Of a stretch of 18,100 bases of DNA, positions 688 through 11,225 are shown piece after piece. This stretch comes from a virus, in the UHGV virus genome UHGV-0199914. One strand, 5' to 3'. The notes beneath the pieces were generated by a model, which was not told where the DNA came from, made no database searches, and worked only from the letters and a program-made list of their open reading frames with translations. Positions within the stretch are counted from its first letter, which is position 1. Each line of letters starts with the position of its first letter. The translations under genes and the position numbers were made by a program.

Positions 688-1117
688 TGCCGTCACGGTG
701 CTGAAAACTAACCCCGATATGCTGCGGATATTCGTGGATAACGGGAGTATTGCCTCCACGCTGGCGGCGTCGCTGTCATTCGAAAAGCGTTACACGCTCA
801 ATGTCATTGTGACCGACTTTACCGGTGATTTTGACCTGCTCATCGTGCCGGTGCTGGCGTGGCTGCGGGAAAATCAGCCCGACATCATGACCACCGACGC
901 AGGCCAGAAAAAGGGCTTCACGTTTTATGCAGACATCAACAATGACAGCAGCTTTGATATCAGCATCAGCCTGATGCTGACCGAGCGCACGCTGGTCAGT
1001 GAGGTGGACGGCGCACTGCATGTGAAGAATATCCCGGAACCCCCGCCGCCGGAGCCGGTCACCCGCCCGATGGAGCTTTATATCAATGGCGAACTGGTGA
1101 GCAAGTGGGATGAATGA
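650..1117 (+). CDS. R: tail completion protein R
   Basis: 155 aa, located immediately after the spanins. Sequence (MLKPDSLRRALTDAVTVLKTNPDMLRIF...) recognised as P2 gpR. AGGA lies 9 nt upstream of the ATG. Confidence 0.85.
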   Translation: MLKPDSLRRALTDAVTVLKTNPDMLRIFVDNGSIASTLAASLSFEKRYTLNVIVTDFTGDFDLLIVPVLAWLRENQPDIMTTDAGQKKGFTFYADINNDSSFDISISLMLTERTLVSEVDGALHVKNIPEPPPPEPVTRPMELYINGELVSKWDE

Positions 1118-1559
1118 GTTTAAGCGTTTTGAAGACCGACTGACCGGACTGATTGAGTCGCTGTCACCGTCAGGGCGTCGGCGACTGAGTGCAGAACTGG
1201 CGAAACGTCTGCGGCAGAGTCAGCAGCGCCGGGTGATGGCACAGAAAGCCCCGGATGGCACACCCTATGCGCCACGCCAGCAGCAGAGCGCCAGAAAAAA
1301 GACCGGTCGCGTTAAGCGAAAAATGTTTGCGAAACTTATCACCAGTCGTTTTTTGCATATCCGCGCCAGCCCGGAACAGGCATCAATGGAGTTTTACGGC
1401 GGAAAGTCACCGAAAATCGCCAGTGTGCATCAGTTCGGTCTGTCGGAAGAAAACCGGAAAGACGGTAAGAAAATTGATTATCCGGCGCGTCCTCTGCTCG
1501 GCTTTACCGGTGAGGATGTGCAGATGATTGAAGGGATTATCTCTAACCATCTAGAATAA
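1110..1559 (+). CDS. S: tail completion / virion morphogenesis protein S
   Basis: 149 aa, start overlaps the R stop (ATGAATGA). Sequence recognised as P2 gpS-like and the synteny fits. Confidence 0.85.
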   Translation: MNEFKRFEDRLTGLIESLSPSGRRRLSAELAKRLRQSQQRRVMAQKAPDGTPYAPRQQQSARKKTGRVKRKMFAKLITSRFLHIRASPEQASMEFYGGKSPKIASVHQFGLSEENRKDGKKIDYPARPLLGFTGEDVQMIEGIISNHLE

Positions 1560-1674: not shown

Positions 1675-3201
1675 ATGCGCGAACCAGTGTATTTAGAAGA
1701 TGTCTTTAAACTTTCGGGTATCCCGACAATTACTTTTGTTGAACCTAACGAGTATAAACACCTCTATGTGTCGATAAGAACAGCGGGAAGAGGGGTAATT
1801 ATTGAAGGGCCATCAGGTATAGGGAAGACGACTTGCGTAAGACAGGTTATTGAAAAGTTAAAATTCGAGACCAGTAGTCGGATAATTAAAGAGTTTAAAG
1901 TATTGTCTGGAAGGAAAAAGGAAGATAAAGCCCAGATTGAAAATATAATAACAACGAGTGGTTTCGGTGGGGTGATTATTGATGATTTTCATAAGTTAGA
2001 TGATGAGTTGAAGCATAAAATATCTGACTTGCTGAAAAATTTAGCGGATGAACAACCCTTAGATTCTAAGTTGATTATTATAGGTATAAATAAAACAGGC
2101 AAATCACTGATTGATTTATCACCGGATTTACTAAATCGAATCTCCATTGTTAAATTTGAGTCCAATCCGGAATATAAGGTCAGGGAGTTGCTAGAAAAAG
2201 GTGAGAATGCGCTTAATTTCAAACTAAATGTAAAAGAAGATATTGTAAAGGACTCGGATGGGGCATTTCATCTGGCGCAAATGTTGGCTTATAATGCTTG
2301 TTTACAGGCTGATATCACAGAAGAGTTAGAATCTCCTCGGGAAACAAATATTAGCTATGAATCACTTAAAGAAACAGTGATTCAGGATCTTAGCTATAGA
2401 TTCAATGATATAGTCGTTCGCTTTGTGAAAGGCCAGCGGGTTAAAAAGGGTAGTAGAGCTCCATATCTCCACGTTTTATATTGGTTATCTAAAGAAGATG
2501 AGCGTTCTTTAAATTTGACAAGTTATTTAATTAACAATCCTAATCATCGTAATAGCGTTGGGCAAATTCTGACGCGAGGCCATTTAAAAACGCATTATGA
2601 GAGCAATCCTGATTTTTCGGATGTTATTCATTATAATGATGAAACTACGGAGATTTCAATCGAAGATCCCAAGTTTTATTATTATATAAAGAATTTGTTA
2701 TGGAGCAAGCTTGCGGAGAAGATAGGTTTCACATCATTTGAGTTTAAGTCGAAATATGACTTTGCTTTATCATTTGCTGGAGCTAATAGAAATCATGCGG
2801 AGTATTTAAATCAAAAGCTGATTGAGAATGAGTTATCTGTTTTTTATGATTTCAATGAGCAGGCCAGAATACTTTCTGAAGATGTAGAACAATATCTTGC
2901 TCCAATTTATAGGAGTGAGTCTGTTTTTGTAATTCCGTTTTTGAGTAGGGATTATCCAACTAGAATATGGTGCAAATTTGAAGGTGATACATTTAGGGAT
3001 AGATTTGGTGATGGGTGTGTTATTCCTTTAAGATATAGTGATGCACCTGTTGGCATGTTTGATACTGCCAATGGCATTGGAGGTTTTACCATAAATCCTA
3101 GTGAGGATATATACGCACAGCTAGATACATTTGCAAACTTGCTTGTTGAAAAAATATGTGAAAAAAGAATGCTCTTAAATGGAAAAGAGAATGAGGAATA
3201 A
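1675..3201 (+). CDS. P-loop NTPase fused to a C-terminal TIR-like domain; candidate single-gene anti-phage defence protein (cargo at the P2 orf30 position)
   Basis: 508 aa. Walker A GPSGIGKTT at nt 1807-1833 and Walker B VIIDD at nt 1972-1986, followed by DFHKLD (STAND/NB-ARC-like hhhhDD kinase-2 pattern). The C-terminal part (about aa 360-490, nt 2752-3140) carries TIR hallmarks: FALSFAG (betaA), SVFYDF, SESVFVIPFLSRDY, and TRIWCKFE with a Glu at aa 436 (nt 2980-2982) in the position of the TIR catalytic Glu after the conserved WC. The gene is about 32% GC against about 50% for flanking tail genes, and has its own promoter-like sequence and RBS. Confidence 0.8.
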   Translation: MREPVYLEDVFKLSGIPTITFVEPNEYKHLYVSIRTAGRGVIIEGPSGIGKTTCVRQVIEKLKFETSSRIIKEFKVLSGRKKEDKAQIENIITTSGFGGVIIDDFHKLDDELKHKISDLLKNLADEQPLDSKLIIIGINKTGKSLIDLSPDLLNRISIVKFESNPEYKVRELLEKGENALNFKLNVKEDIVKDSDGAFHLAQMLAYNACLQADITEELESPRETNISYESLKETVIQDLSYRFNDIVVRFVKGQRVKKGSRAPYLHVLYWLSKEDERSLNLTSYLINNPNHRNSVGQILTRGHLKTHYESNPDFSDVIHYNDETTEISIEDPKFYYYIKNLLWSKLAEKIGFTSFEFKSKYDFALSFAGANRNHAEYLNQKLIENELSVFYDFNEQARILSEDVEQYLAPIYRSESVFVIPFLSRDYPTRIWCKFEGDTFRDRFGDGCVIPLRYSDAPVGMFDTANGIGGFTINPSEDIYAQLDTFANLLVEKICEKRMLLNGKENEE

Positions 3202-3236: not shown

Positions 3237-3283
3237 TAATGGGAGGTTTGCCGTGCTGCTTTCTTGGCGGCATCCTTCCCGTT

Positions 3284-3919
3284 ATGAACACTCTCGCAAA
3301 TATTCAGGAACTCGCGCGCGCACTGCGCAACATGATTCGTACCGGCCTTGTCGTCGAAACCAACCTTAAAGCCGGTCGCTGCCGTGTGCAGACCGGTGGC
3401 ATGTGCACCGACTGGCTTCAGTGGCTGACCCATCGTGCCGGACGTTCGCGCACATGGTGGGCACCTTCCGTGGGGGAACAGGTGCTGATTCTGGCTGTGG
3501 GCGGTGAACTCGACACGGCGTTCGTTCTGCCGGGGATTTATTCCGGCGATAACCCCGTGCCGTCTGCGTCGGCGGATGCCCTGCATATCCGTTTCCCTGA
3601 CGGGGCGGTGATTGAGTATGAACCCGAAACCAGTTCACTGACGGTAAGCGGAATTAAAACGGCCAGCGTGACGGCTTCTGATTTTGTTACTGCCACGGTG
3701 CCGGTGGTCACGGTGAAAGCATCAACCCGCGTCACCCTGGACACACCGGAGGTGGTCTGTACCAACAGGCTGATTACCGGCACGCTGGAAGTGCAGAAGG
3801 GCGGGACGATGAGCGGCAACATTGAACACACCGGCGGTGAACTCTCATCAAACGGTAAGGTACTGCATACCCATAAACACCCCGGCGACAGCGGCGGCAT
3901 AACCGGGAGTCCTTTATGA
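3284..3919 (+). CDS. V: baseplate spike / assembly protein V
   Basis: The ORF is open from 3239, but the recognisable gpV sequence begins at the internal ATG 3284 (MNTLANIQELARALRNMIRTG...), giving 211 aa, the size I recall for P2 gpV. The 15 upstream codons (MGGLPCCFLGGILPV) look like intergenic read-through. Confidence 0.8.
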   Translation: MNTLANIQELARALRNMIRTGLVVETNLKAGRCRVQTGGMCTDWLQWLTHRAGRSRTWWAPSVGEQVLILAVGGELDTAFVLPGIYSGDNPVPSASADALHIRFPDGAVIEYEPETSSLTVSGIKTASVTASDFVTATVPVVTVKASTRVTLDTPEVVCTNRLITGTLEVQKGGTMSGNIEHTGGELSSNGKVLHTHKHPGDSGGITGSPL

Positions 3920-7578: not shown

Positions 7579-8106
7579 ATGCAGCATTTGATAAATATAA
7601 CAGCGGGGAATCCAAAAACGGTTGAACAATATCAATTGACAAAGGGTTTTGATGTTGTCTGGTTTTTTTCAGAAGATGGTAAGAACTGGTACGAAGAACA
7701 AAAGTATTTTGCTGATGACACGATAAAAATAGCGTACGACAAAGATAATATTATCCGCTATGTGGAAAAGGATGTGACAGCTATCAGACCAGATGGATTA
7801 AGTGTTGTTGAAGTGCCAGATATTACTGCTAACCGACGGGCGGACATTTCAGGGAACTGGATGTTTAAGGACGGCACAGTGATTAAACGAATTTATACGG
7901 CGGAGGAATTGCAGCAGCAGGCAGAAAATCGGAAAGCCAGACTTCTAGCAGATGCTGAATCCGTGATTTTGCCGCTGGAACGCGCGGTCAGGCTGAATAT
8001 GGCAACAGATGAGGAACGCAGCCGACTGGAGGTTTGGGAACGCTATAGCGTTCTGGTCAGTCGTGTGGATCCTGCGAATCCTGAATGGCCAGAAATGCCG
8101 CAATAA
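7579..8106 (+). CDS. G: tail fibre assembly chaperone G
   Basis: 175 aa immediately after H. The C-terminal part is conserved gpG-like and the N-terminal part is AT-rich, co-varying with the H tip. Confidence 0.8.
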
Positions 8107-8163
8107 GTTGTATGAGCTCTGGTGTGAGCTGACATATCTATGGCAAAGAGTAAAGCCTAATCT

Positions 8164-8195
8164 GACAGTCCGCTCTGTGCCATGAGCGGACTGTC
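8164..8195. terminator. perfect 12-bp inverted repeat (GACAGTCCGCTC / GAGCGGACTGTC, 8-nt loop); possible terminator between convergent G and the minus-strand cargo gene
   Basis: Stem at 8164-8175 and 8184-8195 read directly from the sequence. No clean U-tract on either strand, so function is uncertain. A second 8-bp palindrome AGATTTAC-GT-GTAAATCT follows at 8203-8220. Confidence 0.35.
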
Positions 8196-8390
8196 AATAA
8201 ACAGATTTACGTGTAAATCTTGAAGCTATACATATTTACTTTCAATGATAAATAAAAGAACCACCCCAAAATCACTGAAAGTATATTTTAACTAACCACC
8301 TGCAACTACTAACATTAATTTCACTCAACCTCAAAGAGTCGTAATTAAAATGATATGTATAGCAATTTGCCTCGATACGAATCATATGAA

Positions 8391-9089
8391 TTATATTTTT
8401 CCATGCTTTTCACCGTCAAATCGAGTCATGCTAGGATCAAGAAAATAAATCAAATCAATTAACGCATGTTGTATTCTGATTAGCCTTTCTTTATAAGGCT
8501 CGATATTTTTTGTCATATTTATCACTTCATTGTTTAAATCTAAAAAAAATGGTTCATTGACAAAGCAATTTTCCTTTGTGAAACCGCCGTAACCTATGCA
8601 ATCAAATCCAGCATCTGTTGATATCAACATCTTTTCCGCAATAGCTCTCTGCTCTCCTATGAAAAACATAAAATACTGACCAAAGGCGTCTGTTTGGATT
8701 AATGAGTTAATATTGTTCTGTAATCTAATAAACTCCCTCATTTTTTTATTTTTTTCTAGACTAAGGTATTGAATGTCTATGCGGGCAGCTTCTGCCCATG
8801 CAAAGAACTGGGAAAAAAGAAAAACCGTATTTTTGATAACATAATCTTGTTGGCGCTTACTCCCATTATGATAAAACTCTTCAATAAACCCTAATTCTAA
8901 TATGTTATAAATGCGGCTTTGTAAGTCTGAAGCTGAGCGAATTAACGGTTCAATATAGTACTGATGTTTTCTCCTTACATCCAGTGTTTCATTGAGCTTG
9001 TTTATTCTATTCTGATTATAGGTAGATATAGCAATAGAGATTATAGATATTGCACCACCAATAAGGCTTGAAATTAATGCCACACTCAT
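8391..9089 (-). CDS. hypothetical membrane-anchored protein, cargo at the P2 Z/fun position; function unknown (candidate defence / exclusion factor)
   Basis: 232 aa on the opposite strand to the tail operons. ATG with AGGA 8 nt upstream. N-terminal single transmembrane helix (SVALISSLIGGAISIISIAISTY), then a roughly 210-aa domain without motifs I recognise. Sits in an island of about 30% GC. Confidence 0.7.
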   Translation of the reverse strand: MSVALISSLIGGAISIISIAISTYNQNRINKLNETLDVRRKHQYYIEPLIRSASDLQSRIYNILELGFIEEFYHNGSKRQQDYVIKNTVFLFSQFFAWAEAARIDIQYLSLEKNKKMREFIRLQNNINSLIQTDAFGQYFMFFIGEQRAIAEKMLISTDAGFDCIGYGGFTKENCFVNEPFFLDLNNEVINMTKNIEPYKERLIRIQHALIDLIYFLDPSMTRFDGEKHGKI

Positions 9090-9911
9090 CTAAAAGTCCT
9101 TTGATTTTCTTGGTTAACAAAATGACATGGTTTTATTTAATGTCGCAGCAACTTAATAATACACCATGATATGATTATTATGGTGTGATTTTTTGCATCT
9201 GTAATCCATTACAAACAGATGCAAGGTATAACTTGTCTATTTTCAGTCAGAAAATTCGTAAACATCCAAAGTAGCCTCATCAAACTCTTAAAATTCTATA
9301 CATTTGAGTGTAAAGATTTTAAATCCAGCTGCATGGTATCGACTCATGTTTATTATATTTTTTATTTGTAATTAAAGGTTGCATTATTTTCGATAATAAA
9401 TCATCGCAAGATTGAAATATGATTTCACTTGATGCAATGTTTCATGTGGCCCAGCGATTTGAGTTACACCCAGCTGTACGGGTAATATAAATCAAATTGA
9501 TGAACTTTTGATACACTCCTCTCTCTTCATTACTTTATGTTTTTGCTCTCAAAAATATCTTGCTCTCTGAAAATTATTCTTTAAGTTCAAAGTCGAGGAC
9601 TGCATGAGTGTTAGATACAAAGCTAATATGTTGAAATGTTTTTCATCTCCCCATAACGGCATTATTATCTAAAATATTTACACAAATATAGAATCACCCC
9701 TTTAACGTAAACTAGGAATCAAGTTAACACCATTATATATATCATAAACATGATATTTTGTATATTTTTATCATTTAGCCTTGATTGTACAGGGCGTACT
9801 CTCAACGAAGTAGGGAAAGTCTGTTTTTCGCTCAAAGCTGGCTGTCAGATTTGATAGCATTTGGGCTATGTAAATTGTCAGTTGGAGAATGAGGGAGTAA
9901 AAATCAGGACA

Positions 9912-9938
9912 GGCGGGCGAATTGCCCGCCTTTTCTTT
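9912..9938 (+). terminator. rho-independent terminator (stem GGCGGGC / GCCCGCC, loop GAATT, then TTTTCTTT)
   Basis: GC-rich 7-bp stem at 9912-9918 and 9924-9930, immediately followed by a T-rich tract at 9931-9938 on the + strand. Located at the boundary between the AT-rich island and the FI upstream region. Confidence 0.6.
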
Positions 9939-9944
9939 ATCTGT

Positions 9945-10007
9945 TGTTTCATCCACTGACCAGCCAGGTCAAATAGCGTCTCATGTACTACCCAACGGAA
10001 AATAGTT
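9945..10007 (+). promoter_or_regulatory. candidate late promoter for FI: imperfect dyad TGT-N12-CCA at 9945-9962 and -10-like AATAGT at 10002-10007
   Basis: Partial match to the TGT-N12-ACA late-promoter element, centred about 55 nt upstream of a plausible start site about 25 nt before the FI ATG. One mismatch in the dyad; geometric inference only. Confidence 0.3.
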
Positions 10008-10034
10008 GCACCCATTAACCACGGAGTTAAACGG

Positions 10035-11225
10035 ATGAGTGACTATCATCACGGCGTGCAGGTGCTGGAGATTAACGACGGCACCCGCGTCATTTCCACC
10101 GTATCCACTGCCATTGTCGGCTTGGTCTGCACGGCCAGCGATGCGGATGCGGAAACCTTCCCCCTCAATAAACCTGTGCTGATTACCAATGTGCAGAGTG
10201 CAATTGCAAAGGCTGGTAAAAAAGGCACGCTGGCGGCATCGTTGCAGGCCATCGCCGACCAGTCAAAACCGGTCACCGTTGTCGTGCGTGTGGAAGACGG
10301 CACCGGCGACGACGAGGAAACGAAACTCGCGCAGACCGTTTCCAATATCATCGGCACCACTGACGAAAACGGTCAGTACACCGGACTGAAAGCCCTGCTG
10401 GCGGCGGAGTCGGTAACCGGTGTTAAGCCGCGCATTCTCGGTGTGCCGGGACTGGACACCAAAGAGGTTGCCGTCGCACTGGCATCAGTCTGTCAGAAGC
10501 TGCGCGCTTTCGGGTATATCAGCGCATGGGGCTGTAAAACCATTTCCGAGGTGAAAGCCTACCGCCAGAATTTCAGCCAGCGTGAGCTGATGGTCATCTG
10601 GCCGGATTTCCTCGCATGGGATACGGTTGCCAGTACCACCGCCACCGCGTATGCCACCGCCCGTGCGCTGGGTCTGCGCGCTAAAATCGACCAGGAGCAG
10701 GGCTGGCATAAAACTCTGTCCAACGTCGGGGTAAACGGTGTTACCGGCATCAGCGCATCTGTATTCTGGGATTTGCAGGAGTCCGGCACCGATGCTGACC
10801 TGCTTAACGAGTCAGGCGTCACAACGCTGATTCGCCGCGACGGTTTCCGCTTCTGGGGTAACCGTACCTGCTCTGATGACCCGCTGTTCCTCTTTGAAAA
10901 CTACACCCGCACTGCGCAGGTGCTGGCCGACACGATGGCTGAGGCGCACATGTGGGCTGTGGATAAGCCCATCACCGCAACGCTGATTCGCGACATCGTT
11001 GACGGCATTAATGCCAAATTCCGTGAGCTGAAAATAAACGGCTATATCGTGGATGCGACCTGCTGGTTCAGCGAAGAATCCAACGATGCGGAAACCCTCA
11101 AGGCCGGAAAACTGTATATCGACTACGACTATACACCGGTGCCTCCTCTCGAAAACCTGACCCTGCGCCAGCGTATTACCGATAAATACCTGGCAAATCT
11201 GGTCACTTCGGTTAACAGCAATTAA
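10035..11225 (+). CDS. FI: contractile tail sheath protein FI
   Basis: 396 aa, GGAG 9 nt upstream, followed by the tube gene; sequence recognised as P2 gpFI-like. Confidence 0.9.
   Translation: MSDYHHGVQVLEINDGTRVISTVSTAIVGLVCTASDADAETFPLNKPVLITNVQSAIAKAGKKGTLAASLQAIADQSKPVTVVVRVEDGTGDDEETKLAQTVSNIIGTTDENGQYTGLKALLAAESVTGVKPRILGVPGLDTKEVAVALASVCQKLRAFGYISAWGCKTISEVKAYRQNFSQRELMVIWPDFLAWDTVASTTATAYATARALGLRAKIDQEQGWHKTLSNVGVNGVTGISASVFWDLQESGTDADLLNESGVTTLIRRDGFRFWGNRTCSDDPLFLFENYTRTAQVLADTMAEAHMWAVDKPITATLIRDIVDGINAKFRELKINGYIVDATCWFSEESNDAETLKAGKLYIDYDYTPVPPLENLTLRQRITDKYLANLVTSVNSN

Follow-up and report, generated by a model that had tools for sequence, protein, structure and literature searches.

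The ORF-free stretch at positions 9090–9911 is very probably the wreck of a second cargo gene rather than a designed regulatory or RNA element, as judged from comparison with related sequences. It lies within the 18,100 nucleotides analysed here (referred to as the window), immediately upstream of a minus-strand gene encoding a membrane protein. An earlier note, made from the letters of the window, had offered three explanations for it, namely a long structured 5' UTR or promoter region, an sRNA or antitoxin-like small-protein partner, and a decayed remnant of a former cargo gene. The third is the correct one for the core at 9247–9648, according to nhmmer homology, an inventory of lesions and a multiple alignment. 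Taken as a whole, the relic is a hitch-hiking pseudogene together with its old flanks and a boundary repeat of the phage, and it is real but ordinary.

Pfam matches in the window to the proteins R, S, V, W, J, I, H, G, FI and FII follow the order of phage P2, which identifies the window as the block of tail genes from a P2-like (Peduovirus) prophage. The gene order around the cargo is R-S-V-W-J-I-H-G, cargo, FI-FII, with G closing the late V-W-J-I-H-G operon. The position of the cargo in the G–FI interval, flanked by the conserved left and right inverted repeats, is characteristic of Z/fun cargo, and the ORF-free stretch sits in this known hotspot. Z/fun is described as one of the two classical variable loci in P2-like phages, in the passages of PMC9122126 and bioRxiv 10.1101/2024.10.15.618418 that cite Nilsson, Karlsson and Haggard-Ljungquist 2004 (Mol Biol Evol 21:1). 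Over 8102–10039 the window shares 98.2% identity with GenBank AJ512683 (“Bacteriophage P2-EC58 proviral Z-region”), and window positions are obtained by adding 8076 to those of the record. The annotation of AJ512683 consists only of ORF1 as a “putative lysogenic protein”, a ribosome-binding site (RBS), predicted −10 and −35 boxes, and the left and right inverted repeats; the ~730 bp from ORF1 to the right repeat carry no other annotation. In RefSeq, no feature is annotated under the region in any of the 413 E. coli genomes that carry it.

The left inverted repeat is kept in P2-like phages with other cargo (P2-EC67, P2-EC31 and L-413C in our alignment) and holds a 13-bp perfect hairpin at 8163–8196 (z = −7.3). 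On the right side, the sequences of about 60 distinct P2-like contigs, whose cargo is unrelated, all become alike at GTC(C/T)G...CGCTCAAAGC, and the next ~110 nt, terminator included, are common to them. By this sequence convergence, the rightmost ~90 nt of the stretch (9819–9910) are conserved P2 backbone rather than cargo. The terminator that follows combines a stem-loop and a T-run with conservation in the ~60 contigs, and it is the terminator of the late operon. In the empty sites of two phages (L058 and L097), the stop codon of G is directly followed by this terminator and both repeats are absent. As the cargo is placed between the last late gene and the terminator, late transcripts of the plus strand should cross it. 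The features of the locus are collected in Table 1.

Table 1. Features of the cargo locus and its flanks in the window, with the evidence for each.
Feature	Position	Strand	Evidence
P2 gene G (tail fibre assembly), left flank of the hotspot	7579–8106	+	Pfam Caudo_TAP, E = 5e-34; RefSeq annotation of a 98%-identical locus
P2 Z-region “left inverted repeat”	8079–8191		AJ512683 feature 3–115
Intact cargo gene, 232-aa protein with an N-terminal membrane helix (“lysogenic protein”)	8391–9089	-	phrog_5606, E = 2e-147
Former spacer from the dead gene's stop codon to the membrane-protein gene	9090–9246	-	Alignment with L005
Hairpin 1, stem of 12 bp and then six T in a row; resembles a terminator and is antisense to the cargo genes	9160–9194	+	Terminator scan and fold
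Hairpin 2, core GCATCTGT / ACAGATGC extended to ~12 pairs	9191–9226	+	Fold
Putative decayed pseudogene of a ~150-aa, PD-(D/E)xK-like family	9247–9648	-	nhmmer, lesion list, multiple alignment, colinear tblastn and hmmsearch fragments
Former upstream region of the dead gene (leader and promoter)	9649–9818	-	Homology to the regions upstream of the intact genes in L005, L012, L015 and L020
P2 Z-region “right inverted repeat”	9819–9910		AJ512683 feature 1743–1833 (9819–9909 in the window)
Strong intrinsic terminator	9911–9931	+	9 pairs, 7 of them G-C; T-run tail TTTTCTTT
P2 gene FI (tail sheath), right flank of the hotspot	10035–11225	+	Pfam Phage_sheath_1

The stretch has a GC content of 32%, and the elements listed in the earlier note are all there. 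A hairpin ACACCAT-N12-ATGGTGT at 9161–9186 is followed by GATTTTTT at 9187–9194, and the inverted repeat GCATCTGT-N12-ACAGATGC is located at 9195–9222. The pyrimidine run CTCCTCTCTCTTC occupies 9516–9528 (13 nt, shifted by 1–2 nt from the approximate position given before), the direct repeat TTGCTCTC occurs at 9543–9550 and 9560–9567, and the 22-codon ORF is located at 9604–9672. Short inverted repeats are enriched, the observed count being reached by only 2% of shuffles. Neither the 8-mer direct repeat nor the 13-nt pyrimidine run exceeds chance level, as they are matched by 46% and 11% of dinucleotide shuffles, respectively. The absence of any ORF of 60 aa or more holds for most of the stretch, the exception being a 61-aa ORF with a GTG start on the minus strand (9771–9956) that overlaps the right end. 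This ORF spans the conserved P2 repeat and the terminator and is unannotated in all RefSeq genomes examined.

The length of the stretch had been called unusual, and this was borne out by a survey of P2-like viral contigs anchored on the conserved sequence past the terminator. We distinguished 31 cargo classes between the two repeats and determined for each the longest stretch without ORFs of 60 aa or more. The class of the window has 739 nt, the longest of all and the sole outlier, while the other classes have 94–403 nt. Moreover, only 42% of its cargo is contained in ORFs of at least 60 aa, compared with 56–90% elsewhere.

A module of 1.7 kb (window 8128–9843) was found at 87% identity in a lambdoid prophage in about 400 E. 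coli genomes, which indicates that the membrane-protein gene and its “non-coding” upstream DNA travel together. The lambdoid copy (L002) retains the inner 65 bp and about 25 bp of the P2 repeats. Its coding sequence is 94% identical to that of the window with zero gaps, versus 82% identity and 15 gap columns for the upstream part. A third lineage (L005–L007, from three independent sequencing runs) encodes a membrane protein of 83% identity. Upstream of it, on the same strand, L005 encodes a ~150-aa protein whose frame is broken by one 1-nt deletion, and intact genes of the same family were found in L012, L015, L018/L019 and L020. We also searched genome, viral and metagenome contigs for further lineages of the cassette, and obtained only the two known alleles and one partial match from Yersinia.

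An nhmmer profile made of four intact coding sequences (L012, L015, L019 and L020) matched the window at 9645–9248 on the minus strand, over profile positions 19–467 and with E = 2e-33, and had no second significant match in the 18.1 kb. At the protein level, the fragments from tblastn and hmmsearch lie in colinear order on the minus strand, and the hmmsearch matches are marginal (E = 0.058 and 1.7); a weak match of this kind is expected, since the window copy is badly decayed. The case for the putative pseudogene rests on homology at the DNA level and on the chain of sequences that leads from the window through L002 and L005 to the intact genes. The damage is extensive. The start codon is gone (ATG to AGA), and 10 nt including the ribosome-binding region of the dead gene are also missing. 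Ten deletions (4, 1, 2, 11, 26, 1, 1, 2, 2 and 1 nt) sum to 51 nt, the indel sizes of 1, 2, 4, 11 and 26 nt not being multiples of three, and the ancestral frame is interrupted by four premature stops. The ExK motif is destroyed as well (VECKS to AGCNS), and the gene's own stop codon is TGA at 9249–9247. Six of the ten deletions are common to the window and lambdoid copies, so the gene was dead before these two copies split.

Three of the elements noticed in the stretch are chance products inside the pseudogene. The pyrimidine run consists of mutated codons for GVGS. The TTGCTCTC copies are mutated codons within REQGILLE, the second copy being present only in the lineage of the window. Finally, the 22-codon ORF runs antisense to the N-terminal segment of the pseudogene, which is its best-preserved part.

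The substitution rates point in the same direction. For the one informative lineage pair, window and lambdoid copy, the JC distance is 0.188 over 9090–9818 and 0.219 over the pseudogene body, and the membrane-protein gene has dS = 0.145 and dN/dS = 0.30. Because the distances are at or above dS, there is no overall constraint on the region, although only three independent lineages carry it and conservation tests are accordingly low in power. The relic itself appears to be without a selected function. By comparison, dN/dS of the membrane-protein gene is 0.12–0.30 against three relatives, which indicates purifying selection on this gene. We infer that its promoter lies in the relic, since this is the only upstream DNA common to the P2 and lambdoid contexts and there is no minus-strand gene upstream.

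The flanking parts of the relic can be followed in the relatives. L005 likewise has a spacer of ~160 nt from one gene to the other; in the window this spacer contains the RBS of the membrane-protein gene at about 9097–9102, as annotated in AJ512683. The spacer also contains the double hairpin (9160–9226), which on the plus strand folds at −27.5 kcal/mol versus −12.3 ± 2.5 in shuffles (z = −6.1), with 0 of 200 shuffles as good, and on the minus strand has z = −3.8. In the lambdoid copy, the stem of hairpin 1 is kept on the plus strand via G-U pairs and the T run is lost, while hairpin 2 is shortened to a remaining GCATC/GATGC core. In L005 the stems are not kept beyond cores of 5–7 bp, the GCATC/GATGC core of hairpin 2 among them. 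Conservation of structure with compensatory changes was found for neither hairpin in the three lineages compared. Beyond the pseudogene, the former upstream region includes a 7-4-7 palindrome, ATATCATAAACATGATAT. The segment 9725–9824 is 94% identical to the lambdoid copy, above what the synonymous rate predicts, but it is not deeply conserved, as identity with L005 is only 65% with an 18-nt indel. On account of the z-score of −6.1 for the double hairpin and the 94% identity at 9725–9824, some sub-elements may be under lineage-specific constraint.

These observations have to be weighed against readings in which the region is kept for a function. It is unlikely that selection maintains it as a long structured 5' leader and promoter regulating the membrane-protein gene, with the hairpins as an RNA switch or stability element. 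The suggestion of a structured 5' UTR or promoter was trivially right in one respect, in that a promoter for a gene under purifying selection in both P2 and lambdoid contexts must lie in the only upstream DNA that these share. In addition, AJ512683 predicts a −35 box at 9317–9322 and a −10 box at 9293–9298, with which our promoter scan agrees, the double hairpin is also stable on the minus strand, and identity to the lambdoid copy reaches 89% at 9090–9159 (RBS and proximal leader) besides the 94% at 9725–9824. However, the scan is uninformative, as it returned 7 sites versus 9.0 expected, and the predicted −10 box TAGAAT reads TAGGGT in the lambdoid copy. As to a selected structure, the overall divergence at or above the synonymous rate, the many indels and the hairpins not kept in L005, where the arms are not complementary, all argue against it. 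Moreover, distant homologues of the membrane-protein gene have upstream gaps of just 177–360 bp without similarity to this one, and no Rfam family was matched by the putative leader.

A separate sRNA or small protein partnering the membrane protein, either an antitoxin-like RNA or the product of the ORF at 9604–9672, is highly improbable. An AGGA does stand near the 22-codon ORF, the lambdoid copy shares its first 12 codons, and 9575–9674 is 88% identical in the two copies; but this ORF is the antisense of the part of the pseudogene that has decayed least. In L002 a 2-nt indel shortens the ORF to 16 codons and alters its C-terminus, and the corresponding site in L005 lacks an ATG. The Rfam 15 scan of 7900–10200 (E ≤ 1) gave no significant family and a single weak PrrB_RsmZ match at 9822–9938 (18.1 bits, E = 0.25), which is far under the gathering score of 44 bits and falls on the P2 backbone repeat and terminator, outside the cargo. 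Tandem repeats of the ToxI type are absent, Tandem Repeats Finder giving two trivial 2-copy rows only, both outside 9090–9911. The locus resembles type III toxin-antitoxin (ToxI-like) systems and sRNA partners in having a non-coding stretch directly upstream of a small gene, possibly one for defence, within a prophage hotspot, whereas it differs from ToxI-like RNAs in having no tandem array, Rfam match or conserved structure, and its sequence is that of a dead protein-coding gene. We see no sign of a selected structured RNA, sRNA or small protein in the region.

A working terminator is another reading of hairpin 1 and its T run (9160–9194, plus strand), which would halt antisense read-through from the late operon before 9911–9931. 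Such read-through is expected from the position of the cargo between G and the operon terminator (compare the empty-site phages), the sequence fits the terminator consensus on the plus strand, and two C-to-T changes in the 5' arm of the lambdoid copy preserve pairing solely on that strand. We nevertheless regard it as quite unlikely, for the T run is absent from the lambdoid copy and the hairpin from L005, the stem is AT-rich with 3 G-C pairs, and the site is downstream of the antisense gene body, so that it would give the gene no protection from antisense transcription. Two further possibilities, together improbable, are that the old promoter region 9725–9824 and the spacer hairpins are kept as an expression and insulation module of the membrane-protein gene, or that the whole inverted-repeat unit, with the pseudogene, is a mobile cassette that passes from P2-like to lambdoid prophage hotspots or back, recombining at its hairpin-containing repeats.

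Returning to the decayed cargo gene, we propose the following history. An ancestral cassette of two genes on one strand, first a ~150-aa PD-(D/E)xK-like gene and then the 232-aa membrane-protein gene, would have resided between the inverted repeats of the Z/fun hotspot in a P2-like phage. Its first gene would then have been inactivated; one relative, L005, shows a single 1-nt frameshift. The dead gene would have drifted neutrally from then on, with the downstream membrane-protein gene staying under purifying selection. What would be left today is the pseudogene body, the old spacer with two hairpins, the old upstream region, the right inverted repeat and the terminator.

In most respects the relic is like an ordinary bacterial or prophage pseudogene, with colinear full-length homology, a lost start, frameshifts, stops, lost catalytic residues and a rate at or above the synonymous one. 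It differs in that it has been carried along in two or more hotspot contexts (the P2 Z-region and the lambdoid prophage) and has decayed enough to evade automated pseudogene annotation. The locus is the same as the Z-region of P2-EC58 (AJ512683) in ORF1, the left and right inverted repeats and the position between G and FI, but the pseudogene reading is absent from that record and from RefSeq. The value of the result is mainly for annotation, and no new mechanism is opened. It explains an anomalously long “non-coding” stretch in one class of P2 Z/fun cargo, adds a pseudogene annotation that is missing in the 2003 GenBank record and in RefSeq, and shows that dead genes can be carried along in hotspot cassettes that pass repeatedly between P2-like and lambdoid prophages.

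The 232-aa protein of the surviving cargo gene has no match in Pfam or NCBIfam, and its AF2 model is all-helical (pLDDT 87), for which Foldseek returned no significant fold match, only generic helical bundles with E > 0.1. Comparison with the Z-region protein of L-413C showed the two to be unrelated. PADLOC RTasTM matches it weakly (E = 4.8e-7); a role as the reverse-transcriptase-associated membrane effector of DRT type 1 is not supported, because its neighbours are G, the pseudogene and FI, without an adjacent reverse transcriptase. A reverse transcriptase is likewise absent next to its homologues in ten other contexts.

Membrane-protein homologues in ten other contexts occur without the nuclease-like gene, and intact members of the ~150-aa family stand alone in four contexts. 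One of these members (L018/L019) lies in another P2-like prophage, adjoining its tail fibre assembly gene, and another (L015, E. coli TA054) is located beside Cap4-nuclease and UvrD-like genes. We therefore rejected the nuclease-like gene as an obligate partner of the membrane protein; the pairing is lineage-specific, and the two do not form an obligate two-gene system. A 150-aa gene downstream in L160 was also considered as a family member and proved to be unrelated.

The ~150-aa family is large. The protein reconstructed from L005 has 1551 homologues at E ≤ 1e-3 in Dickeya, Yersinia, E. coli, Vibrio and many metagenomes. Each is ~150 aa long, and the best are 60–87% identical over 100% of the length. 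No sequence match was obtained in Pfam, NCBIfam, PADLOC or PDB, and the sole profile match is phrog_7353, a profile of 55 residues and of unknown function. Among 60 aligned members, D60 and K73 are invariant and E71 is present in at least 90%, giving a D...ExK arrangement, and the AF2 model (pLDDT 90.3) shows an alpha/beta core. The better Foldseek matches in PDB are mostly PD-(D/E)xK enzymes, including the nuclease domain of Cdn1/Card1, a CdiA-CT toxin, Exo5, Cas4 SSO0001, YaeQ and cap-snatching endonucleases. The best E-value is only 0.018, with TM-scores of 0.44–0.58, and since the E-values are 0.02 or weaker, the fold assignment is provisional. The family shares the D...ExK motif with the PD-(D/E)xK superfamily, and its modelled alpha/beta core may be of the same kind, but it has no sequence match in the four databases above. 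The ancestral gene was probably a PD-(D/E)xK-like nuclease. As a by-product, the analysis brings out a large uncharacterised family of ~150-aa, apparently PD-(D/E)xK-like proteins that serve as cargo of prophage hotspots and defence islands; one UniRef name among the homologues reads “NO VEIN C-terminal domain-containing”.

Imperfect inverted repeats of about 100 nt border the cargo of the Z-region, the P2 Z/fun hotspot between G and FI (window 8079-8191 and 9819-9910). These repeats are absent at the empty sites of the P2-like phages L058 and L097, where the terminator directly follows the stop codon of G. The lambdoid copy of the cassette, with the membrane-protein gene and the relic of the decayed gene (L002 6001-7720), still has ~65 bp from the inner side of the left repeat, along with ~25 bp of the right one. 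This retention implies that P2-like and lambdoid hotspots have exchanged the cassette at breakpoints within the repeats. Similar hairpin motifs, of the form GTCCGCT...AGCGGAC, border cargo in L005 (4896-4930) and L015 (6769-6803).

Comparison with L035 showed that the lambdoid site holding the cassette (L002 5817-7741) is itself a swap hotspot. In strain CD09, the cassette is replaced, within the same lambdoid flanks, by a gene for a GIY-YIG nuclease plus two small ORFs, and an IS1 element breaks into the cassette in a few genomes (H5 and H6). At the start of the LprI-family gene, 44 nt (L002 8135-8178) have 93% identity to annotated CRISPR-array features in many E. coli genomes; this may be a spacer against this lambdoid prophage family or a repeat-like sequence.

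Features of the cargo sites and their neighbours
Feature	Position in the window	Strand	Remark
Membrane-anchored all-helical protein	8391-9089	-	232 aa; phrog_5606
AT-rich cargo island, second in the window	1675-3201	+	P2 'orf30' position
Tail gene S	1110-1559		borders the AT-rich island
Tail gene V	3239-3919		borders the AT-rich island
Flanks of the lambdoid cassette site			ImmA/IrrE-neighbouring gene; LprI-family gene

For PrrB/RsmZ, Rfam gives a sub-threshold match of 18 bits, below the gathering score of 44, at window 9822-9938 (+). It covers the conserved right repeat plus the terminator, which hold several GGA motifs (TTGGAGAATGAGGGAGTAAAAATCAGGACAGG), and is probably due to chance. The backbone segment of ~110 nt under it is conserved: about 60 distinct P2-like contigs share it.

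The ~150-aa family of the decayed gene, for which we considered the members in L012, L015, L018/L019 and L020 and proteins P0121-P0240, is large (1551 matches) and well conserved, with an invariant D...ExK signature, and is absent from Pfam, NCBIfam and PADLOC. Its genes are found as cargo of prophage hotspots and defence islands, for example beside Cap4-nuclease and UvrD-like genes, and the ~55 nt 5' of the start codon are about as conserved across genera as the coding sequence. In the third lineage, a single 1-nt deletion (about L005 3570-3586) leaves the nuclease-like gene as two ORFs and is common to L005, L006 and L007, three contigs from independent sequencing runs. Apart from the deletion, the protein has 87% identity to intact relatives; either the gene was inactivated very recently or the split is tolerated.

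The surviving 232-aa protein weakly matches PADLOC RTasTM (E = 4.8e-7), a membrane effector associated with the reverse transcriptase in DRT systems. Prophages, a conjugative-element-like locus (L156) and chromosomal islets carry it with no reverse transcriptase. The second cargo island has a GC content of about 34% versus about 56% in its flanks. Its product, a protein of 508 aa, combines an AAA/STAND-like ATPase at the N-terminus with a TIR_2 domain at the C-terminus; among PADLOC families it best matches PDC-S59, a candidate defence family (E = 1.5e-19).
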